From NCBI GenBank assembly GCA_050303855.1, contig JBNLCO010000010.1, forward strand, positions 124,093-188,092: a stretch of 64,000 bases of DNA, in the 5' to 3' direction. Source of the stretch: Candidatus Pacearchaeota archaeon. Its GTDB lineage: Archaea > Nanobdellota > Nanobdellia > Pacearchaeales > GW2011-AR1. The position numbers and the translations under genes are program-made. The notes under the pieces were generated by a model. It had not been told where the DNA came from. It did no database searches and worked only from the letters and a program-made list of their open reading frames with translations. Each line of letters begins with the position of its first letter. Position 1 is the first letter of the stretch. Below, piece by piece: positions 2,136-64,000 of the stretch.

Positions 2136-2241
2136 TTTTTTAACCTCTTTTAACGTTAATGGGAAGAAGATTGTATATTTAAAGTTTGTCCATATAAGAA
2201 TGGTTAAAAAAATTTATAAAGACAGTTGATAGAATCTATTT

Positions 2242-2949: not shown

Positions 2950-3089
2950 ATGAGGATTAGGCCTTTATTTGCATGGTATGATTTTTGGGTTGGATTATTT
3001 TGGGATAAAAACAAGAAAATACTCTATTTCTTTCCTATTCCCATGTTTGGACTAAAGTTCGTGTTCTGATCTATGGGATCTACCCACAC

Positions 3090-3125
3090 AAGGTTTATAA
3101 ACCGAAATTTTCTATGATTTATATT
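3090..3125 (+). promoter_or_regulatory. Candidate archaeal TATA/BRE promoter for the L3-led ribosomal operon
   Basis: TTTATAAA at 3094-3101 and TTTATATT at ~3117 in the 220-bp intergenic region upstream of the ATG at 3172. Confidence 0.3.
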
Positions 3126-3171
3126 CCAGGGTAGGACAAAATGAGATCCGCATCATTGACAATTATAGAAA

Positions 3172-4128: not shown

Positions 4129-4129
4129 A

Positions 4130-4375
4130 ATGGATATTGGAGAATCAATGGCGAAGAGAAAAATGATTGAAGAATTTAAGAAGTTAGAAATTGTAGCAGA
4201 AGCATTTTCTGAGGTTAAGGGGAATGTTGCTAAAGACAAAGATCTTGGGATGAGGATTGATGAAACAACAGAATTTCATTATAATATTAAAACAAATTAT
4301 GAAGAAGCAAAGGGAAAATTCGTTGGAGAAGATGGAATGCAATATGCTTTTGAAATAAGGAGATATAACGATTAA
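4130..4375 (+). CDS. hypothetical small protein inserted between L3 and L4
   Basis: 81-aa ORF. TAAAATG junctions on both sides match all neighbouring r-protein genes. No recognisable family. Confidence 0.45.
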   Translation: MDIGESMAKRKMIEEFKKLEIVAEAFSEVKGNVAKDKDLGMRIDETTEFHYNIKTNYEEAKGKFVGEDGMQYAFEIRRYND

Positions 4376-4376
4376 A

Positions 4377-5216
4377 ATGAAAACTAAAACATACGATTTA
4401 ACAGGGAAAGAAAAAGCAGAAATTGCATTACCCAAAGAATTTAGTTCTAAGGTAAGAGAAGATATTGTTTCTAAAGTTCTTGAAGCTGCAAAGAAACATC
4501 AACCTTACTCTCCAAGTCCTGTTGCAGGAAAACAACATTCTGCCAAAGGAAAGATTGTACATAGAAGACATGTTTGGAGAAGTGGTTATGGTAGAGGAGC
4601 ATCAAGAGTACCAAGAAAAATATTCTCACAGAAAGGTTCAAGATTTAATTGGGAAGCTGCAGAAGTTCCATTCGCAAGAGGCGGTATGAGAGCTCACCCT
4701 CCAAAGATAGAACACTTCTTAAAAGAACTTAAGATCAATAAGAAAGAATTAAAGATTGCTTTTGTATCTGCATTGAGTGCAACAGCTTCTGAAAAATATG
4801 TTGTTGATAAATATGCTACAGTAAATAAATTGAATAAAAAAGTGCCATTCATCTTAACTCTTGGAAATACTGAAAACTTGAAAGTTAAAGATTTACTTAA
4901 TGGTTTGAAAGGTATGCTTGGAGAAGAACTTTACAATATTGCAATAAAGAAAAAATCAATTAGGGCTGGAAAAGGAACAATGAGAGGTAGAAAATACAAA
5001 TCAAATGCAGGTATGCTTTTAGTTGTTGGAAAAGATGAAATTGGAAAAGTAAAAACTAAAATGTTTGAAGTTGTTTCGGCTGGAGAACTTGGAGTTACAG
5101 ATCTTGCCCGAGGAGGATTAGGAAGATTAACTGTTTATACTGAAAATTCTGTTAAAGAATTAGAAAATAAGTTTAATGGTAAAACTGAAAAGAAAGTGGA
5201 GGAAAAGAAAAAATGA
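4377..5216 (+). CDS. rpl4: 50S ribosomal protein L4 (uL4) with K/E-rich C-terminal tail
   Basis: HRRHVWRSGYGRGASRVPRK motif region. Position after L3. Confidence 0.85.
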   Translation: MKTKTYDLTGKEKAEIALPKEFSSKVREDIVSKVLEAAKKHQPYSPSPVAGKQHSAKGKIVHRRHVWRSGYGRGASRVPRKIFSQKGSRFNWEAAEVPFARGGMRAHPPKIEHFLKELKINKKELKIAFVSALSATASEKYVVDKYATVNKLNKKVPFILTLGNTENLKVKDLLNGLKGMLGEELYNIAIKKKSIRAGKGTMRGRKYKSNAGMLLVVGKDEIGKVKTKMFEVVSAGELGVTDLARGGLGRLTVYTENSVKELENKFNGKTEKKVEEKKK

Positions 5217-5545
5217 ATAGTGTAGAAATTAAAGTTGTTGAAAATTGGGAAAAACCTGAAGTTTTCAGGACTTTAAAAGAAAAAGATTTGATAAGTGATA
5301 AAGAAGTTGTATTTGAATCCTTCAAGTTGAGAGGAGAAGGAACTTCTTTAATTCATACGCTCCAGAGAGTCAAGCCAGGAATTGTGAAGGTTAAAAAATA
5401 TTATTTTGAATCAGGTAAATTGAGCAGTAACGCAGGAGTGGATTATTGGACCAATTCACTGGATATAGGATATAATCCAGAAGCAAAATCAGATCAAATA
5501 CTTTATGATGCAGAAGATAAATTCCTAAGAGAGGCAGGATTATGA
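5213..5545 (+). CDS. hypothetical small protein inserted between L4 and L23
   Basis: 110-aa ORF with ATGA overlaps at both ends (L4 stop and L23 start). No recognisable family. Confidence 0.45.
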   Translation: MNSVEIKVVENWEKPEVFRTLKEKDLISDKEVVFESFKLRGEGTSLIHTLQRVKPGIVKVKKYYFESGKLSSNAGVDYWTNSLDIGYNPEAKSDQILYDAEDKFLREAGL

Positions 5546-5778
5546 GACCAATAGCAACTGAAAAAGCAGTAATGAAAATTGAAGCAGAGAATGTAATGAC
5601 CTTTGAATTTGATAAAAGAATGAATAAAGAGGACATTAAGAAAGAAATTGAAGAGCTTTTAGATGTTAAAGTTGATTCGGTTAAAACGCAAATAAGAAAG
5701 AACAAGAAAATTGTTTACGCTAAATTAAATAAGAAGAACCTTGCAATTGATCTTGCAACTAAATTAGGAATGATGTAA
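5542..5778 (+). CDS. rpl23: 50S ribosomal protein L23 (uL23)
   Basis: 78 aa, MRPIATEKAVMKIE.. Canonical position before L2. Confidence 0.85.
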   Translation: MRPIATEKAVMKIEAENVMTFEFDKRMNKEDIKKEIEELLDVKVDSVKTQIRKNKKIVYAKLNKKNLAIDLATKLGMM

Positions 5779-5779
5779 A

Positions 5780-6478
5780 ATGGGAAAGAGAATAATACAA
5801 CAGGCACGGGGAAAGGGAAGTTCAACTTATAGAGTTAAGAGAAAAGCTTTCAGTCACAAAATCCAATATCCAAGAGGATTAACTGGAGAAGGAAGAATTG
5901 TAAAGTTATTCTTAACTGGTGGACATAGTGCTCCGCTTGCAAAGATAAACTGGTCTGGAGAGAGTTTTTATGTTCCTGCATTCAAAGGAATGGTTCAAGG
6001 AGAGAAGATTAATTTTGATTCAAAAGAAATTGTTAAAGGAAGTATCCTTGAGTTAGGAGATATTCCACTTAAGACAAAGATATTTTGCATTGAATCGAGA
6101 CCTGGAGATGGTGGAAAGTTCATAAAGACTGCAGGAAGTTCTGCAGAAGTTGTTAGAAGGGTCGGCAAAAATGTTCATGTATTAATGCCGTCGAAAAAAG
6201 AAAAACCTTTTAACCCGAAATGTCGGGCTATTATTGGTGAAGCTGCTGGTCATGGTAGAACAGACAAACCAATAATGAAAGCTGGAAAGCAACATCATAT
6301 TAAGAAAGCAAAAAGTAAATTATGGCCAAGAACAGGTGCATTGAAAGTTAATGCTATCGATCATCCTTTCGGTTCAGGTAGAGGAAAGAACCCTAAGAGC
6401 AAGATTGCAAAGAGAAATTCAGCTCCTGGTCAAAAGGTTGGTTTATTGAGACCAAGAAGGACAGGTAAGAGAAAGTAA
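5780..6478 (+). CDS. rpl2: 50S ribosomal protein L2 (uL2)
   Basis: GKRIIQQARGKGSSTYRV... and ..GGHSAP.. motifs. 232 aa. Confidence 0.9.
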   Translation: MGKRIIQQARGKGSSTYRVKRKAFSHKIQYPRGLTGEGRIVKLFLTGGHSAPLAKINWSGESFYVPAFKGMVQGEKINFDSKEIVKGSILELGDIPLKTKIFCIESRPGDGGKFIKTAGSSAEVVRRVGKNVHVLMPSKKEKPFNPKCRAIIGEAAGHGRTDKPIMKAGKQHHIKKAKSKLWPRTGALKVNAIDHPFGSGRGKNPKSKIAKRNSAPGQKVGLLRPRRTGKRK

Positions 6479-6479
6479 A

Positions 6480-6848
6480 ATGGAAATGAAATTACAAACA
6501 ACTGGAATAAAGTATGAAAATCTAGTTGGAAAAGGATTAGAACTTTTTTGTGAAAGTGCGGTCAATAAAGATGAAAATGTTGTGGGAAGGTATCTTCCTG
6601 GAATTGAGGGACAAGAGATAACCTATTTAGGAAATTTAGGACATAGATTCGGAGAAAGAGATTTATTTGGATTTGAAGAAGACAATAAATTGACTGTCCT
6701 TGTTGGAAACATAAAAGACATTACTGGAAACAGGGCAACGTTAAGCACCTTTGTTCAAAGCATTTCCCCAAATTTTTACGGAACTGAAAATTTGAGTGAT
6801 GAGATTTTAAAACAATGCAAAGAGATTTTGTCAGGAGTAAAAGAATAA
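6480..6848 (+). CDS. hypothetical protein inserted between L2 and S19 (possible divergent small beta-barrel protein)
   Basis: 122-aa ORF with TAAAATG junctions both sides. Weak LVGxxLEL...VVGxxxGIEG pattern faintly reminiscent of RNase P Rpp29-type barrels. Confidence 0.4.
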   Translation: MEMKLQTTGIKYENLVGKGLELFCESAVNKDENVVGRYLPGIEGQEITYLGNLGHRFGERDLFGFEEDNKLTVLVGNIKDITGNRATLSTFVQSISPNFYGTENLSDEILKQCKEILSGVKE

Positions 6849-6849
6849 A

Positions 6850-7254
6850 ATGGTAGATATAGGATCACAAAAGAAACAATTCAAGTATCGAGGCAAAGAT
6901 ATTGAAGAGTTGAAGGCTTTAGATACTCGAGAGGTTGCAAAATACCTTGATTCGAGAGCTAGAAGAACTGTACTTAGAAACTTCCAAGAAATTGAGGATT
7001 TCCTTCAGAGAGCTAAGAGAAAACAATCAAAGAATAAGAAGATTAAAACTCATAAGAGAAAATTGATAGTTGTTCCTCAAATGGTTGGAATGCAAATCCA
7101 AGTACATAACGGAAGAATGTTTATTCCAATTGAGGTTGTCCCGGAGATGATCGGACATTATTTGGGAGAATTTTCATTAACAAGGGCAAAAGCTTCACAT
7201 AGTAAATCAGGAGTTGGTGCTACTAAGGGTAGTAGAGCCAAATCCAAGAAGTAA
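6850..7254 (+). CDS. rps19: 30S ribosomal protein S19 (uS19)
   Basis: HKRKLIVVPQMVGMQIQVHNGRMFIPIEV.. GHYLGEFSLTR motif. Confidence 0.85.
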   Translation: MVDIGSQKKQFKYRGKDIEELKALDTREVAKYLDSRARRTVLRNFQEIEDFLQRAKRKQSKNKKIKTHKRKLIVVPQMVGMQIQVHNGRMFIPIEVVPEMIGHYLGEFSLTRAKASHSKSGVGATKGSRAKSKK

Positions 7255-7259
7255 GTAAA

Positions 7260-7871
7260 ATGACAGAAAAACAATACGCTCCAAGTGCTAAAGAAAAGAA
7301 GATGTCTACAAAGAAAGTAGAATCCCCAGTAGCAGAAGCTCCTAAAAAGGTTGAAGCTAAAGAAAATAAAACTGAAGAGAAAAAAGTTGAAGAAAAGAAA
7401 ACAGAAGTAAAGCAACCTGTTAAAGTTACAAAAGTTAAGAAAGATCTTGCTGTAGTTAATGCAAACAATTCAAAAGTTTCATTAAAATATGCAATAAGCA
7501 TTTGTAAATTCATTAAAGGCAAAAGAATTGGCGATGCGATAAGAGATTTAGAAGCAGTTGTTGTTAAGAAAAAGGCAGTTCCAATGACTGGAGAGTATGC
7601 GCATAAGAAAAGTGTAAAGAAATATGCATCAGGTGCTGGAAAATACCCTGTTAATGCTGCAAAGGCTTTCCTTGTGTTGGTTAAAAGCCTTTTAGGAAAT
7701 GCTAATGCAAATGACATAAATGAACCTGTAATCACTGAATGTATTGCAAACAAAGCCCCCAAACCAATGGGAAGATTTGGAAGATGGGAAAGAAAAAGAT
7801 GCCACATCAAATTGGTTGCAAGAGAAATTAAAGTTAAAGAGAATAAAGCTAAGACAGAGGAAAAGAAATAA
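7260..7871 (+). CDS. rpl22: 50S ribosomal protein L22 (uL22) with ~60-aa K/E/A/P-rich N-terminal extension
   Basis: Core NNSKVSLKYAISICKFIKGKRIGDAIRDLE.. after a low-complexity lysine-rich N-terminus. Confidence 0.85.
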   Translation: MTEKQYAPSAKEKKMSTKKVESPVAEAPKKVEAKENKTEEKKVEEKKTEVKQPVKVTKVKKDLAVVNANNSKVSLKYAISICKFIKGKRIGDAIRDLEAVVVKKKAVPMTGEYAHKKSVKKYASGAGKYPVNAAKAFLVLVKSLLGNANANDINEPVITECIANKAPKPMGRFGRWERKRCHIKLVAREIKVKENKAKTEEKK

Positions 7872-7872
7872 A

Positions 7873-8565
7873 ATGGAAGAAAAACAAACTGTAAAATTCA
7901 AGAAGGAAGACTTTGCTATAAAGGAAATCATAAGAAAGACAATTGGAAAGGGAAAGATGAGCAGAGTTAGAATTGAATATACTCCGGTTGGAGAAAAAGT
8001 AATAATCTCCACAGATAAACCAGGTTTGGTTATTGGAAGGGGTGGAGAGAGTTTGAACGAATTAAGTGATATGCTTAGAAAGAATTTCAAATTCCAAAAT
8101 TTACATATTGAAATTGAAGAAATAAAAGAACCTGAATTTGACTCTCAAACTATTGCAGATGAGATTGCTTTAGGTTTAGAGAGAGCTGGACCATTAAAGT
8201 TCAAGGTTATTGCTTACAGAACACTTGAGAAAGTGATGAAAGCGGGAGCATTAGGTTGTGAAATAAGATTAAGCGGAAAACTTCCAAGTTCAAGAGCTAA
8301 GACATGGAGATTCGCTCAAGGATATTTAAAGAAAACAGGAGACTCTGCAAAGGTTGTAAGTCGTGCTCAAGCAAGAGCTGAGACTAAGCCGGGAACTGTG
8401 GGAGTTAAGGTTAGTATATTATCACCGCATGCAATATTGAAAGATAGAATAAAGATCAACGAAGATTTGATAAACCAGTTGAAAGAAAACGCTGAAAAAT
8501 TAAATGAAGTTCCAGAGAAGAAAACTAAGAAAAAAGCTAAGACTGCTAAGGAGAGTAAAAAATGA
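7873..8565 (+). CDS. rps3: 30S ribosomal protein S3 (uS3)
   Basis: KH-domain GRGGESLNEL. True start taken at the TAAAATG junction at 7873 rather than the longer track ORF starting 7744. Confidence 0.9.
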   Translation: MEEKQTVKFKKEDFAIKEIIRKTIGKGKMSRVRIEYTPVGEKVIISTDKPGLVIGRGGESLNELSDMLRKNFKFQNLHIEIEEIKEPEFDSQTIADEIALGLERAGPLKFKVIAYRTLEKVMKAGALGCEIRLSGKLPSSRAKTWRFAQGYLKKTGDSAKVVSRAQARAETKPGTVGVKVSILSPHAILKDRIKINEDLINQLKENAEKLNEVPEKKTKKKAKTAKESKK

Positions 8566-9827: not shown

Positions 9828-10325
9828 ATGAAGAACAAATTTTCAACAAAATGGAAGGCAAGTAAGAGACCTTCAAAGCAGAGAAAGTATTTAGCAAATG
9901 CTCCTTTACATATAAAGGCAAAACTAGTTAGCGTAAATCTTGCAAAACCTCTTAGAAAGACTTCAGAAAAGAGAAATGTTCCAGTAAGAAAGGATGACAA
10001 GGTAAAGATTATGAGAGGTAAATTCAAAGGGAAAGAAGGAAAGGTTTTGAGTGTAAGTACAAAATATTCAAAAGTAATTGTCGAAGGAATAACAATCAAG
10101 AAAATGGATGGTTCACAAGCAAATGTTCCATTAAAACCTTCAAACTTACAGATAATTGAGATGACAGATAGAAAACAAAAAGCAGTTTCTGAGAAGAAGA
10201 CTGAAGTAAAAAAAAGAGTCTCTGAAACAAAGTCTCAGGACTCATCCGCTGTAGCGACGTCGAACGAAACACCTAAAAAGGAAGTTAAAGAAGTAAAAGA
10301 TAAAGGTAAGGAGAATAAAAAATGA
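9828..10325 (+). CDS. rpl24: 50S ribosomal protein L24 (uL24) with K/E-rich C-terminal extension
   Basis: KOW motif KDDKVKIMRGKFKGKEGKV. Confidence 0.85.
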   Translation: MKNKFSTKWKASKRPSKQRKYLANAPLHIKAKLVSVNLAKPLRKTSEKRNVPVRKDDKVKIMRGKFKGKEGKVLSVSTKYSKVIVEGITIKKMDGSQANVPLKPSNLQIIEMTDRKQKAVSEKKTEVKKRVSETKSQDSSAVATSNETPKKEVKEVKDKGKENKK

Positions 10326-10972
10326 AACATCTAAAGAGAGAAGTAGTACCAAAGAGTTGGCCAGTTCCAAGGAAAGGAACAACTTTTGTAGTTAGATCTA
10401 ACTCAAATCCTGAAAAGGGTGTTCCAATGTTGATATTCCTTAGAGATATGGTAAAGGTTTCTCAAAATAGAAAAGAAGTGAAGAGAGCTTTAGTTAACAA
10501 GAATATTCTAATTAATGGAAAATACGTTTCAGATGAGAAAAACGCAGTTGTATTACTTGATGTTGTTACAATTGTTCCATCAAAGAAATATTTCGTTCTT
10601 GATTTAACAGAAAACGGAAAGTTCGTTGCTAGAGAAATATCTGAGAAAGAGTCAATGAATAAAGTTTCAAAGATTACCGGAAAGAAATCTCTAAGAGGGA
10701 AGAAAACTCAAATTAATTTGATAGACGGAAGAAATTTCATCTCAAATGTAAAATGTGTAGTAGGAGATTCTGTTTTGATTGATTTCAAAGGAAATAAAAT
10801 TGAGAAATGTGTTCCATTGAAAGATAAAGCGAAAGTAATTATTTTTGCAGGAAAACACGCAGGAATGAAAGGAGAAATAGAAAAGATTGACGAGGAAAGA
10901 AAGATGGCTTCAGTGTCTTCAAATGGAGAAAAAATAAATGTTCTTGTTGAACAACTAATGGTAACAGAATAA
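10322..10972 (+). CDS. rps4e: 30S ribosomal protein S4e
   Basis: MKHLKREVVPKSWPVPRKGTTFVV.. is a typical eS4 N-terminus. Archaea/eukaryote-specific. Confidence 0.85.
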   Translation: MKHLKREVVPKSWPVPRKGTTFVVRSNSNPEKGVPMLIFLRDMVKVSQNRKEVKRALVNKNILINGKYVSDEKNAVVLLDVVTIVPSKKYFVLDLTENGKFVAREISEKESMNKVSKITGKKSLRGKKTQINLIDGRNFISNVKCVVGDSVLIDFKGNKIEKCVPLKDKAKVIIFAGKHAGMKGEIEKIDEERKMASVSSNGEKINVLVEQLMVTE

Positions 10973-16266: not shown

Positions 16267-17661
16267 ATGGCAAATCTTACGAAGATATTCTCTTTAATTC
16301 CTGAAGTTAGGAATCCAGATGAAAAGAAGCTAGCTTTTAATGTGAAGCTTAAGTGGACACTTGTTGTATTGATAGGATTTTTTATTTTAGCAAACATACC
16401 TTTGTTTGGTTTGACGAATAATGCTTTGGAGAGATTCCAATATTTAGCTATAATTTTAGGGACAGATTTTGGTTCAATAATTTCTTTAGGTATTGGTCCG
16501 ATCGTTATGGCTTCGATTATATTGCAGTTGTTAACGGGAGCGGGTATTTTAAACATAAATACAAACACTGCAGAAGGAAAGAAGTTTTTCCAAGGAGTTC
16601 AGAAATTAATGGTGTTCTTCTTTATATTATTTGAAGCCACAGTTTATGTATTAATGAAAGGTCTTGAAGCTGCCCCTGGACTTGCAGGAATAGTTATCTT
16701 CCAACTTATAATTGGAGGTATTGCGATTTACTATATGAATGAACTTTGTGAAAAATGGGGATTCGGTTCGGGAGTTAGTTTGTTCATTGCAGCGGGAGTA
16801 TCTTGGAATCTATTTACTGGTGCATTCCAGTTCATAAATCAGCAAGGTAGAAACTGTCTTGCAGATTTCTCGGGAACTGCATGTTCAGGAAAGATTTTCG
16901 TATTAATACAATCAATTGTGAATAAGTACCCTGTTGAATTTATGTCCGCACTTGGGGCTATTGTAGCAACGGTTGCTATATTTTTGTTGGTAGTTTGGGC
17001 CCAATCGCTTAAGGTAGAAATTCCTTTGAGTTTTGGAAGAATTAGAGGATATGGTGTAAAGTGGCCTTTGAGTTTCTTCTACGCTTCAGTTATCCCTGTT
17101 ATTTTAACTGCTGCTTTAGTTGCAAACATACAACTATTTGGAGGGCTTTTGGAGAATTGGAGAGGTCATGCAACATTCCTAGGTCATTTCGTAAATGGTC
17201 AGGCAGTGTCCGGTTTAGGGTTCTGGCTTGGGCATACGAATTTGCTTGAATTGGCAATAAGAGGAGGATTCTTACCTAGGTTCTTAGTCCAAGGATTGAC
17301 GCACATAATATTCTATACTGGACTTGCAATGTTGTTCTCGATATTTTGGGTTAAAAGTTCTGGAATGGACTCAAAAGCTCAAGCTCAAAAGATATCTTCA
17401 TCAGGATTACAAGTTGCAGGTTTCAGACAAGATAACAGAGTTTTGGAAAGCATATTAGATAGATATATAATGCCTTTAACAGTTATGGGAGGAGCGGCAA
17501 TAGGATTGCTAGCTGCTTTAACAGACTTGTTAGGTGCTATGGTTTCAGGAACAGCGATACTTTTGGTTATCATGATAATGTTCCAATTCTATCAGAGTAT
17601 TGCACAACAACACATGACAGATATGAATCCTGCTATGAGGAAGTTTATGGGAAATGCATAA
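16267..17661 (+). CDS. secY: preprotein translocase subunit SecY
   Basis: 464 aa, 10 TM. ..LGIGPIVMASIILQLL.. plug/TM2 region. Canonical position after L15. Confidence 0.9.
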   Translation: MANLTKIFSLIPEVRNPDEKKLAFNVKLKWTLVVLIGFFILANIPLFGLTNNALERFQYLAIILGTDFGSIISLGIGPIVMASIILQLLTGAGILNINTNTAEGKKFFQGVQKLMVFFFILFEATVYVLMKGLEAAPGLAGIVIFQLIIGGIAIYYMNELCEKWGFGSGVSLFIAAGVSWNLFTGAFQFINQQGRNCLADFSGTACSGKIFVLIQSIVNKYPVEFMSALGAIVATVAIFLLVVWAQSLKVEIPLSFGRIRGYGVKWPLSFFYASVIPVILTAALVANIQLFGGLLENWRGHATFLGHFVNGQAVSGLGFWLGHTNLLELAIRGGFLPRFLVQGLTHIIFYTGLAMLFSIFWVKSSGMDSKAQAQKISSSGLQVAGFRQDNRVLESILDRYIMPLTVMGGAAIGLLAALTDLLGAMVSGTAILLVIMIMFQFYQSIAQQHMTDMNPAMRKFMGNA

Positions 17662-49024: not shown

Positions 49025-50542
49025 TTAATCTTTATGAATCTTTTTTATTATCTCGCCAAATGCAGGTCTTGTAATGAAAACCCCTACAGAAATACCAATT
49101 ATTGTTGTTATTGCGAACCCTTTTAATAAACCTGCTCCAGCCCACATTAGAGGAAGTAGTGAAACCAATGCGGTGAAATAAGCTCCCATAATTATTGCAA
49201 ATGCCCTTTTCAACCTTTGCTTGAGGCTCATAACCGTCTTGTTTCTAGATTCGTCAAGCAAAACAATTTGATCATCAAATCCTGTACCAATTGTAGCCAG
49301 TATTCCCGCAATTCCCGCTAAATCTATGTTCCAATCTATTAAAGAAGCTATCCCTAAAATAATTATAATTTCTGAAAAACTAACCACAACTAGAGCTATT
49401 GAAGACTTAAAATCACGGTATCTAATGAACACCACAATTGATGCTGCTATAAGTGCGGCTATTCCAGCAAGCATGATGAATTTTATGAAATTATTTCCAA
49501 GGGTGGGAGATATTGTATCAAGCTTTACAATTTCTAATTGGTAAGGCAAGCTACCTGTTATTAAAACTGTTTTAAGTCTATTCATTTCTGCCTGAGCGTT
49601 GTCGTATGCTTCTTCGATAGTTGCCCCTGATTCTGAACCCGAAATAGAAATTCTTGTTTCTAATTGGCCTTTAAGTCCTGTACTAATTTGTAAGCTACTT
49701 ACAAGAGAATCATCAACATAAAGGTCAAGTGATTCTTCCAAATAAGTTGGATTGGAATCATTTGATGAAAGATTAGACGTTACTTTTGCGAATTTCTTTG
49801 CTGCTTCTGGGCTTAGAGTTATTCCGAATTGGAAACTACAAACTGGATCGTTGGTAGGGCAGGACACATAAGACTCTTGGGCATTGTTACTTACGGAAGC
49901 TATATCTTTATCCCCTCCAATAAATACAATTTCATCCCCGATTTTGGCTTCAAATTTACCTTGATTTTCGATTAGATCTTTCAAGTCTTTAGGGGTAGAT
50001 CCTGCAATCTCTATTAACATGAAATAATTCCCATCCAAATCTCTTACTGGGCTTACCTTAACATCGGATAAACCATATACGTTTAATCTGTTTGTTGTAA
50101 TTGAAACCAAATCGCTTATTTCTTCTGAATTTAATTCTTGCCCTTTAGCTTTGATTAACGCTCTTGCCCCTCCTGATAAATCCAACCCAGTTTTTATAGA
50201 AGTTTTGGGTATTTGGGCAACGGTTATTTCAGGGGCTGAACTAGAATAATAAATTATCTCTGAACCCTTTGTTTGAAAAACCATTTTTGTGTTTCCATTC
50301 AAGAATTTCCCTTGCAAATAATTTGAGAAATCTGAAAGGTTTTCTATTTTTACATTGTCAATAGAAGTTATTATTTGTCCTTGCCGGAATCCTTGGTCAA
50401 AAGCGGTAGAATTGGCTTCTACGCTAGTAACCAAAACTCCTTTTTGTAAAATGGTAAAACCATTTGATGAAACGAAAATAGACAATAAGGAGATCAAAAT
50501 TAGGATTAACCAGATCCAAGTCTTAATTCCAAGTTTCTTCAT
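49025..50542 (-). CDS. secD: protein-export membrane protein SecD
   Basis: 505 aa, large extracytoplasmic domain with TGLDLSGGARAL motif, C-terminal 6-TM RND-like bundle. Confidence 0.8.
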   Translation of the reverse strand: MKKLGIKTWIWLILILISLLSIFVSSNGFTILQKGVLVTSVEANSTAFDQGFRQGQIITSIDNVKIENLSDFSNYLQGKFLNGNTKMVFQTKGSEIIYYSSSAPEITVAQIPKTSIKTGLDLSGGARALIKAKGQELNSEEISDLVSITTNRLNVYGLSDVKVSPVRDLDGNYFMLIEIAGSTPKDLKDLIENQGKFEAKIGDEIVFIGGDKDIASVSNNAQESYVSCPTNDPVCSFQFGITLSPEAAKKFAKVTSNLSSNDSNPTYLEESLDLYVDDSLVSSLQISTGLKGQLETRISISGSESGATIEEAYDNAQAEMNRLKTVLITGSLPYQLEIVKLDTISPTLGNNFIKFIMLAGIAALIAASIVVFIRYRDFKSSIALVVVSFSEIIIILGIASLIDWNIDLAGIAGILATIGTGFDDQIVLLDESRNKTVMSLKQRLKRAFAIIMGAYFTALVSLLPLMWAGAGLLKGFAITTIIGISVGVFITRPAFGEIIKKIHKD

Positions 50543-51432
50543 CTTGAACCTCCGTGTTTTTTATGGAAGTACCACTTAAGTATTGAAACATTGGTGATCC
50601 AAGTGTTTATCATATCAAAGAATAATCCTATTACAAGGATTGTGAAAATTTGAGTTAAAATTTCTGAGAAAGATGAGGCAACAAACAGAGCTATTGCCAT
50701 AGCAAAAAATGAAGTTAAAGTCATAGTCATACCGGTCTTAAAAGCCCCAGATATTCTTTCGTTTAGAGAGCCTTCGTGACGTTTCAATACTCTGTTTGTA
50801 AGAAGGATATCCGTATCCACAGAATAACCAATAAGCATAAGCAAAGCAATTATTCCTGCGCTAGACATCTTTATTCCAAAGAGATTTATTGCAACAAGGG
50901 TTAACAGGATATCTGCAAAAGCAGAAATTATAACTGCTCCTGAAGGAATTAGATCTTTGAAAATTATGAAAACAACTATTGCCATAAATAAGAATGCTAC
51001 AAGAACTGCAATTATCAATTGCTTATAGAAACTTTCACCAAAAGAAGATCCTGTTGAAATTATGTCTGAATTCTCTCCAGATATTAATTCGTAACCCAAG
51101 AATGTCTCTAATTCGGCTTTAGCTGTGTCAACATCTGAAGTAGTTTCTATTGTGAGGGCTATTTGCTCTTGAGTTAGAAGATCAGAGATTTCTCTTACTG
51201 CGAGATTATCCAATTTTGGTTCTAGAGCTAAGGTTAATTCGGAAGCGGATATTTTATCATAAACAGTTATTGAAGTTCCCCCTGTAAGGGAGATATCTTT
51301 CTCAAAGAATGCTCCGTGGTTTGAATTATAAACTCCAAGATAAACTAGTGAAAATAGGATTAAAACTGCAGGGATAATTAGCAAATATTTGTAAGATTTA
51401 TCATGCCAGTGTTTTTTTGTTGATTCTTCCAT
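50539..51432 (-). CDS. secF: protein-export membrane protein SecF
   Basis: 297 aa, ..DISLTGGTSITV.. motif. Overlaps the secD start. Confidence 0.8.
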   Translation of the reverse strand: MEESTKKHWHDKSYKYLLIIPAVLILFSLVYLGVYNSNHGAFFEKDISLTGGTSITVYDKISASELTLALEPKLDNLAVREISDLLTQEQIALTIETTSDVDTAKAELETFLGYELISGENSDIISTGSSFGESFYKQLIIAVLVAFLFMAIVVFIIFKDLIPSGAVIISAFADILLTLVAINLFGIKMSSAGIIALLMLIGYSVDTDILLTNRVLKRHEGSLNERISGAFKTGMTMTLTSFFAMAIALFVASSFSEILTQIFTILVIGLFFDMINTWITNVSILKWYFHKKHGGSR

Positions 51433-51443
51433 TTGAAATTCTA

Positions 51444-51531
51444 TGCGCGGACCGGGGATCGAACCCGGATCAACTGGTCTCTTCAGACAACCTGTGGAAG
51501 CCAGTTATTCTAACCATTAAACTATCCACGC
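51444..51531 (-). tRNA. tRNA-Gly (anticodon UCC) with a 16-nt canonical intron between positions 37/38
   Basis: Reverse-complement folds into a cloverleaf. Acceptor GCGUGGA/UCCGCGC, discriminator A. T-arm CCGGG-UUCGAUC-CCCGG. Anticodon stem ACUGG/CCAGU enclosing CUUCCA|CAGGUUGUCUGAAGAG|A. Confidence 0.8.
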
Positions 51532-57354: not shown

Positions 57355-58059
57355 ATGGAAAAAATAAACGAAACAAAGGATAAGCTTGTATTTAAGGCAG
57401 AAGTTGATGAGAGCTTAGCTAACGCCGTTAGAAGGTATGTTCACCAGATACCTGTGGTTGCTGTCGATAGTGTAGAAATCTCAAGAAACGATTCTCCTTT
57501 GTATGATGAAACCGTTGCTCATAGAATTGGATTAATCCCTTTGAAACAAAATAAAAAAGAAGGAACAATGAAATTAAAGGTGAGTAAAGAAGGATTTGCT
57601 TATTCCGGAGAATTTGAAGGAGACATTAGTGTAGTTTATGATGGAATACCAATAACTTTGTTGAATAAAGGACAAGAAATTGATTTAACTGCTACTGCAA
57701 AGACTGGAAAGGGTGCAGACCATTCTAAATTCTCTCCTGGATTATTTTATTACAGAAAAGTGTTAGAGCTATCTATGGAGAAAGATGTTGCAGACAGATT
57801 AAAAAGAATGTATCCAGAAATAGAAATTAAGACAAAAGGTAATAAAGCGGTAGTTATTGATGATCAAGAAAGAGAAGTTTATGATTTTTGTGAGGGAGTT
57901 AGTGAAAAGGAAGGAAAGGAAGTTGAAGTTAAACCAATGAAAGAGTTGGTTGTTACAATTGAATCATTTGGCCAGATCCCTGCTAAAGATATTTTTACTA
58001 AATCATTAGATGTTTTGAAAAAAGATTTAGAAGATTTTGCAAAAAAAATAGCAAAATAA
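57355..58059 (+). CDS. rpoD: DNA-directed RNA polymerase subunit D (Rpb3-like)
   Basis: ..LANAVRRYVHQIPVVAVDSVEISRNDSPLYDETVAHRIGLIPLK.. motif. Conserved position after S13-S4-S11. Confidence 0.8.
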   Translation: MEKINETKDKLVFKAEVDESLANAVRRYVHQIPVVAVDSVEISRNDSPLYDETVAHRIGLIPLKQNKKEGTMKLKVSKEGFAYSGEFEGDISVVYDGIPITLLNKGQEIDLTATAKTGKGADHSKFSPGLFYYRKVLELSMEKDVADRLKRMYPEIEIKTKGNKAVVIDDQEREVYDFCEGVSEKEGKEVEVKPMKELVVTIESFGQIPAKDIFTKSLDVLKKDLEDFAKKIAK

Positions 58060-58525
58060 TTTTTCTAAAAAATAAAATATAATTTTGGATTTTTGTGACA
58101 AGAAATTTGTCTTTGGAAGTAATAATTTAATGAAATAGGGTATTTCGGGTAGGCTTATTTTTGGAAATTTTGCAAAAAAAATATCCCAAAACCAAATTAA
58201 TGATTCGGGGATATTTTGTGAATTTAATGTAACGAATGATAAAGCTTCTGCGGGGGCAAAAGAATTTTAAAGAAATCACCGGAATTAAGGAAGTATAAAT
58301 AGAATTCAAATGAATCCCCTCCTTTATTTAAATAGAGGACCCAGCAATAATTTTCTTCCCAAATTAGCTTCGCTTTATTTCTTAATTCTCCCCAGCTAGG
58401 ACTAGTTTTTGTAAGCGACCAGTCATTTGTTTGAATTACTCCGAATATCGAATTAGGAGAATTTTCTTTATTGAAAGCTTCTTTTACAATTTCTAAATCA
58501 TTTTTCATACCATTTTATTTTAAGG

Positions 58526-59092
58526 TTAAGCAAAATAATTAATTGAGATGAAATTAAGAGGGTGGAATTCGCCTTGTTCTTTTTCAGATTTTATTTTCTC
58601 ATGAGACCTCCAAACCTTTCCATCTTGTCCAATCAATATGGCCTTATCGCCAGCGTAAACAATGTACTTGGGTCTTGGATCTACCTGATAAACATAATCC
58701 TCTTCGGCACTGTAATTATCACAGAAATCTTCATAATCTTCTATCTTTAATGACCGCCCGCTCTTAAATATAACTCTAACAGAGAGAGGGTTTTCTTTTA
58801 GGATAGGTTTCAGATCATCATATTTCCAAAATTCTTTGAATGGGACAAAACGAACAACTTTGACTAAAGAATCTTCTCCTTTAATCGAATATCCTTCCGT
58901 GTTTATTAGTTTGGATTCCTTTTTCTTCAGGAATCCTTTTTCTTCAACAAATTTTGCGGCGTCAGTCACAAAATCTTCAAGCGTTGCCTCTTTTGGAGGT
59001 TTTACTATTTTCTCCTGAGTTTTAGGAGATTTTTTATTGCAACCAGAAATAAAAAGTGCAATAATTACTAAAATAACGATACGTGTTTTCAT
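58526..59092 (-). CDS. predicted lipoprotein (unknown function)
   Basis: Signal peptide MKTRIVILVIIALFISGC with lipobox-like ISGC. Confidence 0.45.
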   Translation of the reverse strand: MKTRIVILVIIALFISGCNKKSPKTQEKIVKPPKEATLEDFVTDAAKFVEEKGFLKKKESKLINTEGYSIKGEDSLVKVVRFVPFKEFWKYDDLKPILKENPLSVRVIFKSGRSLKIEDYEDFCDNYSAEEDYVYQVDPRPKYIVYAGDKAILIGQDGKVWRSHEKIKSEKEQGEFHPLNFISINYFA

Positions 59093-59118
59093 AATTATAA
59101 ATTTAATTTGGATAATTT

Positions 59119-59460
59119 TTAAAACAAAAGACTAAAATAATTATCAATTTCATTATCAGATACGGCCTCTTCAAAATTCTCTATATTTTTTACAGCAAGT
59201 TTTAATTTATTAAAACAATCTTCTGTAATGATCAAAAAAGGCGATTCTTTATAAGGGACCTTAATAGTGATGATGTAATCTTGATTTCTTAGAAGAGGAA
59301 TAATCTTCTTATAATGCTTATAGAATTCATCGGAATCTGACATGAAACCAAGCGCAATGAGCTCTTGAATTGCTTCTATAGTTAAACGTGTTATCCCGGG
59401 CTCTTTTAAAGTCTTTATAACATCTTTATTGTTCATCTTTTTATCAATTATATTAAACAA
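59119..59460 (-). CDS. hypothetical protein (113 aa, no signal peptide)
   Basis: ORF co-directional with, and tightly spaced to, the neighbouring secreted-protein genes. Confidence 0.35.
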   Translation of the reverse strand: MFNIIDKKMNNKDVIKTLKEPGITRLTIEAIQELIALGFMSDSDEFYKHYKKIIPLLRNQDYIITIKVPYKESPFLIITEDCFNKLKLAVKNIENFEEAVSDNEIDNYFSLLF

Positions 59461-59533
59461 AAAGAAAAGGCATAAGCTATTGCTCTTTGCCTTTTCTAAG
59501 TTAGAGATTGGTATAGAAGAAATTAATAGGAGA

Positions 59534-60397
59534 TTAATTTGTATTAGTTTGGGTTGTTGATGGATTGCTTAATACTTCAAACCTTTCTTTAATCATTGTT
59601 ATGGAAAGCTTCTTGTGGGTATTGGAGGCGTATCCCATATTAACAACAACCAAATATTGTCCTGGTTCAAGTTCCAGCCCGATATTTTTGCCTTGTACAA
59701 ACTTTTCAAAACGATTATTGTAACCGTTACCTCTTATCTGAAAAGTTTCAACTTTCAAGACCTTTCCAGTTGAAGCGTCATATATTTTTGCATTAATACA
59801 AGGTATATCTTTTGATAACATTTTAATATAAAATGCAAAGTTTATTTCTTCTCCTTGAACGAATGATCTTTTCTTGCCTTGGAATTCATCTATTTGAGCA
59901 AGACCATCTCTGTTAAAATCAGAATACCAATTGTACATGAAAATATTGCCCAAAGTGGCATAATCCTTTACTCCAAAAGTATTTGAGGGTATGTATGCAA
60001 AGTTTACTAACTCATTTTGAGTATACTCTGGAAGAGTATGGGAGACAGAAACGGGGGTGTGTATAACGTTAAAGTCGCCTGGATCTTCGTTTGCCCAGGT
60101 GTATCCTTCATCAGGGTACACTCTCCTAGTGCCATCAACTTCTAAAACATGAGTATTTGGATAGTTATGCGTTACATTTATGTTTTGGGTGGAAGTATTT
60201 GAAGCGGTAGTAATCTCCATAGTGTATTCCATTTCACCAGATGTTGTAAGAGCCTTTCCCAATACACGGGAAAATTTATTTGCACCATTTTCTACTAAAA
60301 ACTCTCCAGCAATAATTTTCGCCTGAGTTTTAACTGATTGCGCACTTGTACCTAGTACAAGTAGAACCATTACTGAAATAAAAACTAATTTTTTCAT
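59534..60397 (-). CDS. secreted hypothetical protein
   Basis: N-terminal Sec signal MKKLVFISVMVLLVLGTSAQS. 287 aa, Asn/Thr-rich. Confidence 0.45.
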   Translation of the reverse strand: MKKLVFISVMVLLVLGTSAQSVKTQAKIIAGEFLVENGANKFSRVLGKALTTSGEMEYTMEITTASNTSTQNINVTHNYPNTHVLEVDGTRRVYPDEGYTWANEDPGDFNVIHTPVSVSHTLPEYTQNELVNFAYIPSNTFGVKDYATLGNIFMYNWYSDFNRDGLAQIDEFQGKKRSFVQGEEINFAFYIKMLSKDIPCINAKIYDASTGKVLKVETFQIRGNGYNNRFEKFVQGKNIGLELEPGQYLVVVNMGYASNTHKKLSITMIKERFEVLSNPSTTQTNTN

Positions 60398-60478
60398 CTT
60401 ATTTAATTTTTGTTAATAAATGTTATTTTTAATAAAAAAGAAACCTCCAGAGAGGTTTCATAAAAATTGCTTAAGAAA

Positions 60479-61207
60479 TTATTCTTTCTTAACAAAAATT
60501 CGAGAATAATTATTTATTCCAAGAAGCAATTGGTTTGAACAAATATAAACCAAATTTGTGACTATTTGACATCTAAAAGCCCCGTTTATGGAATTAGAGG
60601 GGTGCATTAAACTGATCTTATGATCTCCGTTTCCTTGTGTGGGCACCCCATATTCATCAATATCTCCATAATAACGCCACTTAGCTGAATAATCCTCAGA
60701 CCAAATAGATCTTTCTGTAAGATCGAATAACCCTTCCTTAGTTAATTCTAATCCCGGAAGATCAATTTTAAGAGGAATTTTTAATTTTCCAAAAGAATCA
60801 ATCTCTCCAAGAGATTTTTTGAATGATTTGAACTGGTTGATCAAATGGGTTGCATCTCCCTTATTTATACTCACTCCGTTAAGATAAATCCCTGCTTCAA
60901 CCAAGTGTTTTCCAAAGAATATTTTTTGGTTATTGTAACATTGATATGTTGTCAAAGGATTGTTTTTCAGACCTTCAGTATTTACCCACATATCATAAAG
61001 AACAATGAACTTTGGGTTAGCACGAATAATATCTACTTTTCCGGTTGAATAAACAATATCTTTTGTCATTAATTCGAAAACTTCTTTTCTAAGAAAAGAT
61101 CTTCCGAACCTGAGAACTTCTTTGAATATTTCAACATCTGAAAGCATTTCTCCATTCACTTTTAAACTTAATTCATGGAAAGGGTTTGATCTTAAAATAT
61201 TTTCCAT
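60479..61207 (-). CDS. hypothetical protein (242 aa)
   Basis: Long ORF, no signal peptide, no recognised domain. Confidence 0.4.
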   Translation of the reverse strand: MENILRSNPFHELSLKVNGEMLSDVEIFKEVLRFGRSFLRKEVFELMTKDIVYSTGKVDIIRANPKFIVLYDMWVNTEGLKNNPLTTYQCYNNQKIFFGKHLVEAGIYLNGVSINKGDATHLINQFKSFKKSLGEIDSFGKLKIPLKIDLPGLELTKEGLFDLTERSIWSEDYSAKWRYYGDIDEYGVPTQGNGDHKISLMHPSNSINGAFRCQIVTNLVYICSNQLLLGINNYSRIFVKKE

Positions 61208-61370
61208 AATTGTTGTTTTACATTATACATTATTTTTTCTTCTTGTTGAAACCTTTCTTCCTATTATATTCCAACCTTCTTTTTATCTTCTCTGGATTTA
61301 CCTCAGAAGAATCAATAAAATCTTCTTGCAAAAATAGATTGTTTTTCATAAGAACTAATTTAAATTATAA

Positions 61371-62561
61371 CTACTCTTTAATCCCTGTTATCCGGATTTT
61401 ACGGAGGTGTAGATATTCATTCTTTTCTTTTAGGAATTTATCATATTTTGCCACCACTCCTATCTTTATTATCCCTTCACTTTGATTAATTGACTTATTA
61501 AATTTTGTTAGATAATCTAAAGGGTCTTCCCAATTAAAGTCAGGGATTGGAGAAGAATAAATATCAAAAAGAAGGAAAATGTTTCCAAGACTATCTTGTC
61601 CAAATATTTCCAAATGACCTCCCTTTTTATTCCCCGCATCAAAAGATAGTTTTGTAATTGCATAACCTGACTCTGAGAACAAATCATCAAACCAAATAGT
61701 GTCCTTACACCCATATAATTTAAAGGGCCCTTCAATTTTGGAAGTCTCTTTTGGGATAAAGGTTGTATCTCCAGGGGCGAAAACAAATACAGAATCATAA
61801 ATCACAAGAGTATCTTTACTTGAAATGAAAACGCTGTCTATGCTATACACTGTGTCTTTCTGGTAAATGTAAATATACTCTATATTATAAATTGTATCAA
61901 GTTCAAAAGTAAAAATTGAATCTATACTAAAAACCGTATCTTTTTTATAGATAATAACAGAATCTATACTAAAAATAGTGTCAAAGAAATTATTTACAAC
62001 AAATACTGTATCTAACTTCGATATTATAAGTGTGTCCACATTGGAAATTATTTCTCTTATAGTATCATAAAAGAAATAAATTTTTGTCTGAACAATTGTG
62101 TCTTTTTCCACAATCCAATTAATTTTTCCACAAACTGTATCTTGAAGCAATAAAACATCTTCTTCATAAAACAAATAAATGTGGCACAAATCATTAAGGG
62201 CAACTGCCTCAAAATGAAAGTCGGGTTTTGTAACTTGGCTTGAATCGCCTTTTGGACCTTGAGGACCCCTATCTCCATTACAAGTAGTGTCTCTATATAT
62301 GAACCTGTCAACACCTTCATTATAGGTGGCATCTTCATCAAGGTTTTGATAAAGTGTTCTCACCCGGCACAATTCATCTATCTTTTTTGATTCAGAAAGA
62401 ATTGGGGGCCACTCTGGAGATCCGATATAGATTGTATCCACCCTGCCTTCTGGAGAGTTTATAGTTACATCAATAGAAACATTTGTTTCTTCCAAATAAT
62501 CTTCACAAGAGATAATTGTAAAGATTGTAATCACTATTACTAAATAGATTAAATTTCTCAT
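61371..62561 (-). CDS. predicted lipoprotein with internal 14-aa tandem repeats and a short collagen-like G-X-Y stretch
   Basis: MRNLIYLVIVITIFTIISC lipobox. Six DT[VI]xSIDSxF-type repeats. GDRGPQGPKGD. Confidence 0.5.
   Translation of the reverse strand: MRNLIYLVIVITIFTIISCEDYLEETNVSIDVTINSPEGRVDTIYIGSPEWPPILSESKKIDELCRVRTLYQNLDEDATYNEGVDRFIYRDTTCNGDRGPQGPKGDSSQVTKPDFHFEAVALNDLCHIYLFYEEDVLLLQDTVCGKINWIVEKDTIVQTKIYFFYDTIREIISNVDTLIISKLDTVFVVNNFFDTIFSIDSVIIYKKDTVFSIDSIFTFELDTIYNIEYIYIYQKDTVYSIDSVFISSKDTLVIYDSVFVFAPGDTTFIPKETSKIEGPFKLYGCKDTIWFDDLFSESGYAITKLSFDAGNKKGGHLEIFGQDSLGNIFLLFDIYSSPIPDFNWEDPLDYLTKFNKSINQSEGIIKIGVVAKYDKFLKEKNEYLHLRKIRITGIKE
61797..62057 (-). repeat. ~42-nt tandem coding repeats (6 units) inside the lipoprotein gene
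   Basis: Recurring gaatctatactaaaaa... DNA units and the DTVFSIDSxF peptide periodicity. Confidence 0.5.
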
Positions 62562-62588
62562 AAATTTAAAGATTTAAAGGGTTATTAG

Positions 62589-63479
62589 TTAAAATTTTAT
62601 TTTTAAGCCTGCACCATATTGAGAGGTTTCTAATTCAAAAGAATTCAACAATTTGTATTGGTTTTTTATTTCTCTGAATTTTCTTCCAAATATTCCATCC
62701 AAAAGAATTATGCCGCCTGCTGTTATTAAAACTGGCTTAAAGGGGTTCATCGTTTCCTTATAGGATTCAATTTTAGTCGAAACTTCAACACCATCCAAGT
62801 TTAAGTTAATGTCTTGGTTCGTTCTTTTAATTCTATCAGGTAGAAAAAACCCTCCAATAATTAAACCTGATCCAAGAGCGGTTTCGTAGTTTAGAAAATC
62901 ATTAAATTTCCATTTCAAAGTTTCTTCAAGAGACAAGAGGGATTTTTTTGAGAGTAAATTACAAGGATATTCAAAATAATGGTACATTGAATCAATATCT
63001 CCTTTATAGTCTAAAAGAATTAATGTATCTTTTCTAGAATATTCTTCAATAACAATATACGAATCTTTTGGGCATTCTTTTTTATCAGTTTTTCCCAATT
63101 CAATAGAAGGTTCACTGTTATTACTCTCATTTCTGGAGGAATCAATCGTCACACCTTTATTTGCAGAAAAGGTTGAATTCTTCTTATGCGATCCAACCTT
63201 GGATCTGGAAGGTTTTCTATTAGTTTGTCCTTTAATTTTAGGACATGTGCAGCAACAAGTGTCTACTTTTTCTTCTAGTTTCCTTAATTTATCTGAAAGG
63301 ATAATCATTTCATCAGTTAAAGTATTCAAATTTAATTTATTTCTGAGTACTTCACTTTCGAGTGGAGATATACTTCCATTGGAGGAGCTTTTATCTTTCC
63401 AAAAAGTTCCGTACGCTACAAAACAAAGTATCGCAAAAAGCAATACAGTGTTTATGTGAGAATTTTTGATTGTTTTCAT
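62589..63479 (-). CDS. membrane-anchored/secreted protein with coiled-coil, Cys-cluster and C-terminal beta-rich domain ending in Phe
   Basis: N-terminal hydrophobic anchor. CCCTCPK cluster. C-terminal ..YGAGLKIKF-stop. Confidence 0.45.
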   Translation of the reverse strand: MKTIKNSHINTVLLFAILCFVAYGTFWKDKSSSNGSISPLESEVLRNKLNLNTLTDEMIILSDKLRKLEEKVDTCCCTCPKIKGQTNRKPSRSKVGSHKKNSTFSANKGVTIDSSRNESNNSEPSIELGKTDKKECPKDSYIVIEEYSRKDTLILLDYKGDIDSMYHYFEYPCNLLSKKSLLSLEETLKWKFNDFLNYETALGSGLIIGGFFLPDRIKRTNQDINLNLDGVEVSTKIESYKETMNPFKPVLITAGGIILLDGIFGRKFREIKNQYKLLNSFELETSQYGAGLKIKF

Positions 63480-64000
63480 TTTTAAAATTTTAAAGTTTTA
63501 AACTATTTTCAGATTATTTCTTGAACAAGAGGACAAATTAATATAACCTGATATTAAATTTTGGTTATTATTTTTCTTTGAATCCTTTCTTGAGAGATTT
63601 TCGATTCTAAATAAAATGATCTTTTTTCTCATTTTTCTACTATTTTTTGAGGATTGTTTTTTAAATAAACTAAAATATTATCAAACTCATGGAAGGCTCA
63701 ATACCGATATCTGGATCATCTGGAAAGTTATCTCCATAGTTATAATAGATGTCGTATTGATCCTCCTCAAAAAAATATTTTAAATTCATAATTTTATCTC
63801 CTATTTTTAATTATATCTTTTAAAATTAAATTCTCTCGGCTCTTATGAACATGTCTCGGTAGGCATGTTTTTGGTTTCTAAATAGATTCCTCCAAGAACT
63901 TCTTCTCAAGATTATCTTTGCCAAAGTTTTAGACACGGCTATTGGATTCCAAAGCAAAGGAATCTCGGGAGATCTATAAATCTCTGTTTGAATTATTTTA

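Follow-up and report, generated by a model that had tools for sequence, protein, structure and literature searches.

In a 64,000-nucleotide (nt) stretch of DNA from Candidatus Pacearchaeota archaeon (GenBank assembly GCA_050303855.1, contig JBNLCO010000010.1, positions 124,093 to 188,092 of the forward strand; hereafter, the window), six genes on the minus strand at 58526-63479 converge on rpoD, and four of them encode proteins with a predicted N-terminal export signal or membrane anchor. The explanation that we favor, and that we regard as probable, is that these genes, numbered P1 to P6 from the rpoD side, are part of a genuine and variable island of exported surface proteins, partly derived from bacteria, at a conserved hot spot after rpoD. 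The evidence comes from the genes and their signals, from the continuity of the island in an independent assembly, from the gene order around rpoD in related species, from the family and fold of P3, and from the bacterial-type domains encoded in the islands of relatives. Contigs other than the window are referred to by L numbers.

A cluster of predicted exported proteins

All six of the minus-strand genes named in a preliminary description of this DNA were found at 58526-63479, where their open reading frames (ORFs) occupy 92.5% of the interval. At a stop-codon probability of 0.083 per codon in this 31% GC DNA, the chance of an ORF staying open ranged from 6e-5 to 1.5e-15 across P1-P6; the ORFs are far above chance length, and all six are real genes. 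The same description had called them consecutive, which needs amending at both ends: a seventh ORF of 94 amino acids (aa) (58224-58508, minus strand), whose coding status is uncertain and which has no homologue in Pfam, PHROGs, or the related contigs and no record in the public gene catalogue, intervenes between rpoD and P1, and the array runs on beyond the end of the window.

P1 (58526-59092; 188 aa) starts with a lipobox sequence, ...LFISGC (ISGC, residues 15-18), followed by the basic stretch NKKSPK, and P5 (61371-62561; 396 aa) with ...TIISC (IISC, residues 16-19), followed by the acidic stretch EDYLEE. P3 (59534-60397; 287 aa) is predicted to be secreted, with MKKLVFISVMVLLVLGTSAQS and the Sec signal TSA|QS, while P6 (62589-63479; 296 aa), which lies 27 nt upstream of P5, has an N-terminal hydrophobic anchor and a short helical or coiled stretch. 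P4 (60479-61207; 242 aa) is without a signal, and P2 (59119-59436), 26 nt upstream of P1, is a small predicted cytosolic protein. The P2 ORF extends to a TTG at 59460, and an independent gene call prefers the ATG at 59436, which gives a protein of 105 aa and is more probably the start.

To compare these proteins with their surroundings, all window genes were scanned with a crude combination of hydropathy, charge, and the lipobox regular expression [LVI][ASTVI][GAS]C. A single N-terminal signal or anchor was found in four of the six cluster proteins (P1, P3, P5, and P6) and in none of the ~72 other window genes (Fisher p = 1.05e-5); only three of those others have N-terminal hydrophobic segments, and all three are polytopic (a transporter with 10 transmembrane segments, SecD, and SecF). 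By regular expression and hydropathy only, P1 (I-S-G-C) and P5 (I-I-S-C) fit the lipobox pattern, and the two lipobox proteins and one Sec-signal protein that had been described earlier are thus P1, P5, and P3. Of the membrane-anchored coiled-coil protein described with them, P6, the N-terminal anchor stands and the coiled coil is backed by weak matches only (DUF7518, E = 0.009; FlaC, 0.63). The suggestion that the cluster is a cell-surface or exported module draws support from this enrichment of signals and from the structural model of P3 described below, which has a beta-sandwich of the adhesin or carbohydrate-binding type. From the signals, we infer that the cluster proteins are exported and, where a lipobox is present, lipidated.

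The slot after rpoD in related species

The window is archaeal, with ribosomal-protein operons, SecY, L21e, Rpb4, DUF655, and an S13-S4-S11-RpoD series that ends at 58059. Archaea normally continue the operon after rpoD with rpl18e-rpl13-rps9; none of L18e, L13, and S9 occurs in the 68.8 kb that we saw, which comprise the window and an extension of it. The extension comes from an independent assembly of SRR36185838 (Logan), whose contig L001 matches window positions 58502-64000 at 100% identity and runs 4.8 kb past the window end. L001 carries all six genes and continues, on their strand, with genes for a methyltransferase, a major vault protein (MVP) homologue, and a repeat protein. The cluster is therefore the rpoD-proximal end of a co-directional array, at least 10.7 kb long, that is convergent to rpoD.

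A metagenome scan with RpoD led us to loci of three other related species, L004, L006, and L007 (RpoD identity to the window, 65% in L004 and 51% in L006; L007 is the closest relative). All three hold different genes in the slot after rpoD, and in two of them, L004 and L006, these include minus-strand genes for exported proteins. In L004, rpoD is followed on the minus strand by genes for a lipoprotein, two outer-membrane protein (OMP) beta-barrels, a FISUMP protein, and a homologue of P1 (L004:3432-4010, minus strand; tblastn 1e-8, phmmer 9e-10). The neighbors of this P1 homologue match OMP_b-brl_2 (3e-19) and OMP_b-brl (7e-10), and the FISUMP protein matches Fib_succ_major/FISUMP at 1e-30 in Pfam and 1.7e-34 in NCBIfam. 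In L006, rpoD is separated from tRNA-Leu/L18e-L13-S9 by ~6.7 kb of minus-strand genes, which have archaeal genes on either side. The best-supported reading is that this lineage has a hot spot of recombination in the slot after rpoD, where each species carries different cargo.

Several further features of these loci were recorded. The L006 island (1800-8290) encodes small membrane proteins and a 649-aa HerA/FtsK/TrwB-like ATPase, and an OMP-like gene of the island is apparently split by a frameshift into products of 80 aa (signal SFS|QI) and 217 aa; the island ends at tRNA-Leu(tag), and a serine-recombinase fragment lies at 10000-10419, beyond L18e-L13-S9. In L007, a two-gene cassette (260-776; 81 aa and 113 aa) follows the rpoD stop codon and precedes the conserved spacer; by eye, it looks like an antitoxin/RelE-like toxin pair.

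A conserved repeat at the island boundary

The last codons of rpoD (..DFAKKI) hold a 17-mer, ATTTTGCAAAAAAAATA (58034-58050, plus strand), that occurs only twice in the 64-kb window, the second copy being at 58167-58183, 116 nt downstream. With its flanks, the second copy forms a 27-mer, TTTGGAAATTTTGCAAAAAAAATATCC (58160-58186, plus strand), which is a noncoding partial duplicate of the rpoD 3' end and marks the inner boundary of the island. The 17-mer also ends rpoD in L004, in L007, and in the related contig L003. The 27-mer is identical at 27 of 27 positions in L004, even though the two RpoD proteins share only 65% identity, and its copies recur after rpoD in L003, L006, and L007. Two or three repeat copies are present in each of four species (in the relatives, at L004:662-678 and 706-732; L006:1683-1802; and L007:162-178, 820-836, and 914-930), with the duplicate or duplicates just downstream of rpoD. 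Taken as RNA, the junction gave no Rfam match and no significant fold (z = -0.18). The repeat may be an att site or another site of recombination; as the minus strand of the region reads T8, it may also be a terminator for the convergent cluster.

Site-specific integration usually leaves behind a copy of the 3' end of its target gene that is more strongly conserved than the target, and the genomic islands and integrative elements known for such duplications classically use tRNA genes as targets. The slot after rpoD resembles such islands in having variable cargo at one position, a partial direct repeat at the boundary, and a repeat whose conservation between species exceeds that of the gene beside it. 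It differs from the classical islands in that the target is protein-coding (rpoD), that no integrase or distal repeat was found, and that its two or three copies are closely spaced and confined to one side.

These likenesses bear on whether the island could be an integrated mobile element or provirus that targets the rpoD 3' end and carries the exported proteins as accessory cargo. A duplicate at the border that is conserved more strongly between species (27 of 27 positions) than rpoD is what would be expected of an element-borne att site, the cargo varies by species and includes the toxin-antitoxin-like cassette of L007, the L006 island combines its HerA/FtsK/TrwB-like ATPase with a tRNA border and a nearby serine-recombinase fragment, and assemblies break at the boundary. 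However, the 10.7 kb that we saw contain no integrase, recombinase, capsid, or replication gene; the cluster has no relatives in IMG/VR, GenBank phages, or PLSDB plasmids and no PHROG membership; no distal repeat copy is present at the far end of the L006 island, even when 4 mismatches are allowed; and the composition is native, as described below. We consider an integrated element rather unlikely as the whole explanation, and it is compatible with, not exclusive of, a variable surface-protein island at the rpoD hot spot.

Continuity of the junction

The preliminary description had suspected an assembly join where the conserved informational genes give way to the cluster, and the suspicion has a factual basis because the Logan contigs break there: L002 runs up to 58271 and L001 from 58502, each matching the window at 100% identity, and the 230 nt between these contig ends (58272-58501) are missing. 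The end of contig L003 falls within repeat copy 2. If an archaeal contig had been misjoined to a low-GC bacterial fragment at ~58.1-58.5 kb, this would account for the place where the contigs stop and restart and for the bacterial-looking signals everywhere to the right of the junction, and the MVP gene, which has the most atypical codon usage (z = -1.6) and GC (0.38) of the island, could be counted in its favor.

The comparative evidence argues against such a chimera. The P1 homologue and the identical 27-mer adjoin rpoD in L004, which is an independent assembly of another species, and comparable inserts in L006 and in the archaeal contig L012 are flanked by archaeal genes on both sides. We found no repeat of the 58272-58501 stretch within the window and no window repeat able to cause a misjoin. 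The codon usage of the cluster is native (z from -1.1 to +0.2), its tetranucleotide signature (r = 0.82) equals that of the ribosomal-protein segment, its GC matches the rest of the window, and P1 is preceded by an TTTAAAAA element at -31 to -24, as in the archaeal leaderless genes of the window. A misjoin is accordingly very improbable, and the breaks seem to fit strain-level heterogeneity at a variable locus better than a chimera. As a sign of foreign origin, composition was set aside as not discriminating, with GC, codon usage, and tetranucleotides all native.

A P3 family common to archaea and bacteria

P3 belongs to an unnamed family with 24 representatives at E<=1e-3 and 10 at <=1e-10. 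Its relatives include P0005 (4.5e-33, with 40% identity over residues 1-276), P0006 (2.3e-29), and P0007 (3.2e-27). Similarity is collinear over the full length, and motifs are conserved in the family alignments; the architecture consists of a signal, a QSLESQLKIIFGD helix domain, the motif GYxWxNPxDxxDFRV, and a FTYNWxxDFNxDGxxxxDEFxGIKRTF beta-sandwich. P3 itself carries the GYxWxNPxDxxDF motif and DFNRDGLAQIDE, a calcium-loop-like motif (DxNxDG).

Structure prediction, which the preliminary description had proposed, gave a usable model for P3 (predicted local distance difference test score, pLDDT, 76.9), with a helical N-domain and a C-terminal immunoglobulin (Ig)-like beta-sandwich. The modeled fold resembles Ig-like/E-set modules, including the Wzt carbohydrate-binding domain 6o14, CARDB 3idu, macroglobulin MG domains, and adhesins; with identities of 10-16% and no Pfam match, this is a likeness of fold only. 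P3 differs from these modules by the addition of the helical N-domain and the family-specific DxNxDG calcium-loop-like motif. Together with the export signals, the P3 fold points to a binding or adhesive role, and both the binding of ligands and a part in attachment to partner cells are plausible.

Members of the family occur in archaeal and in bacterial contigs. L012, which is collinear with the window over 1-5 kb at 59-68% protein identity, carries a P3-family gene (L012:1801-2715) between L3 and a conserved 235-aa gene, at a place where the window (2949-3172) has a 222-nt spacer, and the family therefore moves between sites within the lineage. In the bacterial contig L009, the P3-family gene is accompanied by RecJ, a bacterial-type GPD, and a PorV/PorQ-like OMP; the bacteria-like contigs include L014, with an ISL3 transposase, and L018, with an OMP-like protein and lipoproteins of the type bearing a lipoprotein export signal (LES). 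None of the other five cluster proteins recurs in the neighborhoods of the P3 homologues. A 185-aa neighbor in L018 was tried as a relative of P1 and rejected: the C-termini look similar, but profile and pairwise comparisons gave E values of ~0.1-0.9.

Export signals and the question of bacterial ancestry

When cleavage is predicted by the -3/-1 rule, P3 exposes Gln at +1 after its signal peptidase I (SPI) site (TSA|QS), and so does every Sec/SPI-type signal linked to these archaeal loci (LSA|QI, LQA|QD, and IYA|QD in L004; SFS|QI in L006; AKA|QS in P0010). This placement of Gln directly after the SPI site, the Q-rule, has been reported as Bacteroidetes-specific (PMC5837995). For surface lipoproteins of Bacteroidota, the optimal LES is C-X-K-(D/E)2-X, with SDDFE as an acidic variant (PMC5080379). 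The L004 lipoprotein, which starts C-E-K-D-D-D, is an exact fit to the optimal LES. P5, which starts C-E-D-Y-L-E-E, is net acidic like the SDDFE variant but is without Lys or Ser, and P1, which starts C-N-K-K-S-P-K, does not fit.

The loci resemble Bacteroidota in the Gln exposed by their Sec signals (PMC5837995), in the acidic residues that follow the P5 lipobox and the exact C-X-K-(D/E)2 of the L004 lipoprotein (PMC5080379), and in the OMP beta-barrels and FISUMP protein that neighbor the relatives' genes. They differ from Bacteroidota in that the host genome is archaeal, with no known outer membrane or Lol/Bam machinery and, in the part that we saw, no glutaminyl cyclase, that Bacteroidota homologues are lacking for five of the six proteins, and that the stretch after the Cys of P1 is basic rather than acidic. 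Lipoproteins and AliA have been reported in DPANN, and lipobox proteins and AliA are widespread across archaea (PMC12462473); a lipobox is thus not bacterial by itself, and anchoring of P1 and P5 through thioether-linked archaeol is plausible. Like archaeal AliA/AliB lipoproteins, P1 and P5 combine a Sec-type signal with a canonical lipobox, whereas the characterized AliA/AliB lipoproteins come from haloarchaea, in many cases depend on Tat, and are for the most part substrate-binding proteins (PMC12462473), and P1 and P5 contain no recognizable domain.

The idea of a horizontally acquired bacterial cassette, also raised in the preliminary description, survives in part. It is upheld by the P3 family in bacterial contigs, by OMP_b-brl, OMP_b-brl_2, and Fib_succ_major in the islands of relatives, and by the Q-rule signals; it does not extend to the five of six proteins without a detectable bacterial relative, and neither the native codon usage nor the lipoboxes speak for it. 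Because these five lack bacterial relatives, we can point to bacterial ancestry in the cluster for P3 only and, by analogy, in the islands of relatives.

An opposite view of the same data is that these are native, fast-evolving archaeal surface genes whose bacterial look is convergent or is the lineage's own style. That P1, P4, and P5 are strict orphans, that codon usage and the promoter-like element are native, that archaea, DPANN among them, widely possess lipobox proteins and AliA, and that Gln at +1 lacks a baseline from other secreted proteins of the genome are all consistent with native origin. The bacterial families matched by the L004 slot proteins, the P3 relatives in bacterial contigs, and the reported specificity of the Q-rule argue the other way. 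Native origin appears unlikely to us, and both it and a chimera are less likely than a partly bacteria-derived island.

The remaining cluster proteins

The preliminary description had recognized no domain in the six proteins, and searches of Pfam, PHROGs, NCBIfam, PADLOC, and PDB sequences gave nothing significant for any of P1-P6. PHROG matches to cluster proteins were set aside as mere signal-peptide look-alikes, and a defense system was discarded, PADLOC having returned nothing meaningful. In a word-indexed search among 5.8 billion proteins, P1, P4, and P5 matched only themselves.

P5 contains four G-X-Y triplets, GDRGPQGPKGDS (residues 96-107), then ~10 beta-strand repeats that open with 'DT' (residues 141-287; period 8-15, mostly 14), and a C-terminal domain. 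This make-up suggests a lipid-anchored fibrous protein. A collagen-like assignment was rejected, as there are four triplets only, no long (G-X-Y)n tract, and no Pfam Collagen match, and a single-sequence AlphaFold model of P5 was discarded (pLDDT 32). Besides its anchor and helical or coiled stretch, P6 has a cluster of cysteines (CCCTC), a polar linker, and a domain at the C-terminus whose last residues are ...GLKIKF. It has no relative in viral contigs, phages, or plasmids. None of the six cluster proteins, P6 with its ...GLKIKF end included, matches the OMP_b-brl profiles (PF13505/PF13568), even at E <= 1.

The rest of the island and of the window

Upstream of P6, a gene call of 39 aa (63670-63789, minus strand; L001:4992-5111) is followed by the gene for a 286-aa S-adenosylmethionine methyltransferase (Methyltransf_23, 4.9e-23), the 3' part of which is in the window (63826-64000, minus strand). 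The MVP homologue (867 aa; L001:1365-3968, ~0.8-3.4 kb past the window end, on the cluster strand) matches MVP_shoulder (3.5e-21) and Vault_3 (1.5e-9) and aligns with eukaryotic MVP at E = 3.7e-16 over residues 484-844; it has no relative among the species-representative genomes scanned. MVP homologues are known from a few bacteria, including Cytophagales, and from ten Asgard archaea (10.1101/872010; PMC12962969). The last visible gene of the island, also on the cluster strand, encodes a repeat protein of at least 409 aa (L001:2-1231) with a weak match to DUF5363 (3e-7); its repeats of ~55 aa read ..FCKxLxPKxxDxSEIL..LSxI....xVFExCxDxFKxAxxEE..FL..xGYD, and it has an acidic linker.

Elsewhere in the window, an N-glycosylation/surface-glycan locus at 19753-48980 encodes AglB/STT3 (913 aa), GT4 (Glycos_transf_4), three Glycos_transf_1 proteins, GT2, a GT10 fucosyltransferase, a GDP-mannose dehydratase, several epimerases, a DegT aminotransferase, an NTP-transferase/GHMP-kinase fusion, an asparagine synthase, and a Wzx-type flippase. 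With SecY at 16267-17661 and SecD/F at 49025-51432, this makes the window rich in envelope functions beyond the cluster. At 51444-51531 (minus strand), ARAGORN predicted a tRNA to which it assigned no identity and for which it called only two anticodon bases ('tc'); this may be an archaeal tRNA that contains an intron or is unusual in some other way.

Proposed organization and significance

In the model that we propose, the island would occupy the place where rpl18e-rpl13-rps9 normally follow rpoD, and its cargo would be mostly exported protein. P3 would be released through Sec and SPI, and P1 and P5 would be exported and tethered by their lipobox cysteine, which in an archaeon would mean thioether-linked archaeol attached by AliA-type enzymes. 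P6 would be held by its N-terminal membrane anchor on a short helical stalk. The products could then make up a layer of binding proteins and fibrous proteins at the cell surface, in which P3 would be a beta-sandwich with possible calcium binding and P5 a lipid-anchored fiber of beta-repeats. Behind the conserved copy of the rpoD 3' end, the slot would swap its cargo, and some of that cargo at least would have come from diderm bacteria of the Bacteroidota/FCB type and then diverged fast; this direction of transfer and this donor are what we infer from the likenesses described above.

Several points weigh against this model. The independent assembly does not bridge 58272-58501. The hot spot is read from comparative anatomy, because neither a recombinase nor a distal repeat copy was seen. 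Five of the six cluster proteins are without a bacterial relative in our searches, lipoboxes are expected in archaea, DPANN included, and the Sec cleavage sites were placed by eye. The Gln at +1 of P3 is a conserved residue of its family and is therefore not independent of family membership.

A more far-reaching conjecture is that these archaea live in physical contact with Bacteroidota-type diderms and capture or exchange, at the rpoD hot spot, envelope proteins together with the bacterial sorting code (Gln at +1, LES, OMP beta-barrels, and FISUMP), which would insert into or mimic the outer membrane of the partner. We offer this as a long shot; if true, it would mean a DPANN-like archaeon with a bacterial host and one domain of life using the protein-sorting signals of another.

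Small archaea that depend on a host presumably rely on surface proteins that evolve fast, but almost all of these are unannotated. Under the model of a variable, partly bacteria-derived island, a cluster of orphan genes now has a context, in that its slot would be a conserved one, prone to recombination and placed within a core informational operon, and the cargo of this slot repeatedly carries Bacteroidota-style sorting signals and outer-membrane families. The adjacent MVP homologue is a rare prokaryotic example from outside the Asgard archaea, in a family whose origin is under debate. The hot spot, with its conserved 27-nt boundary, provides a handle that can be searched for in other genomes, the P3 family is a new protein family common to both domains, and together they suggest a hypothesis about the gene-exchange partners of these archaea.

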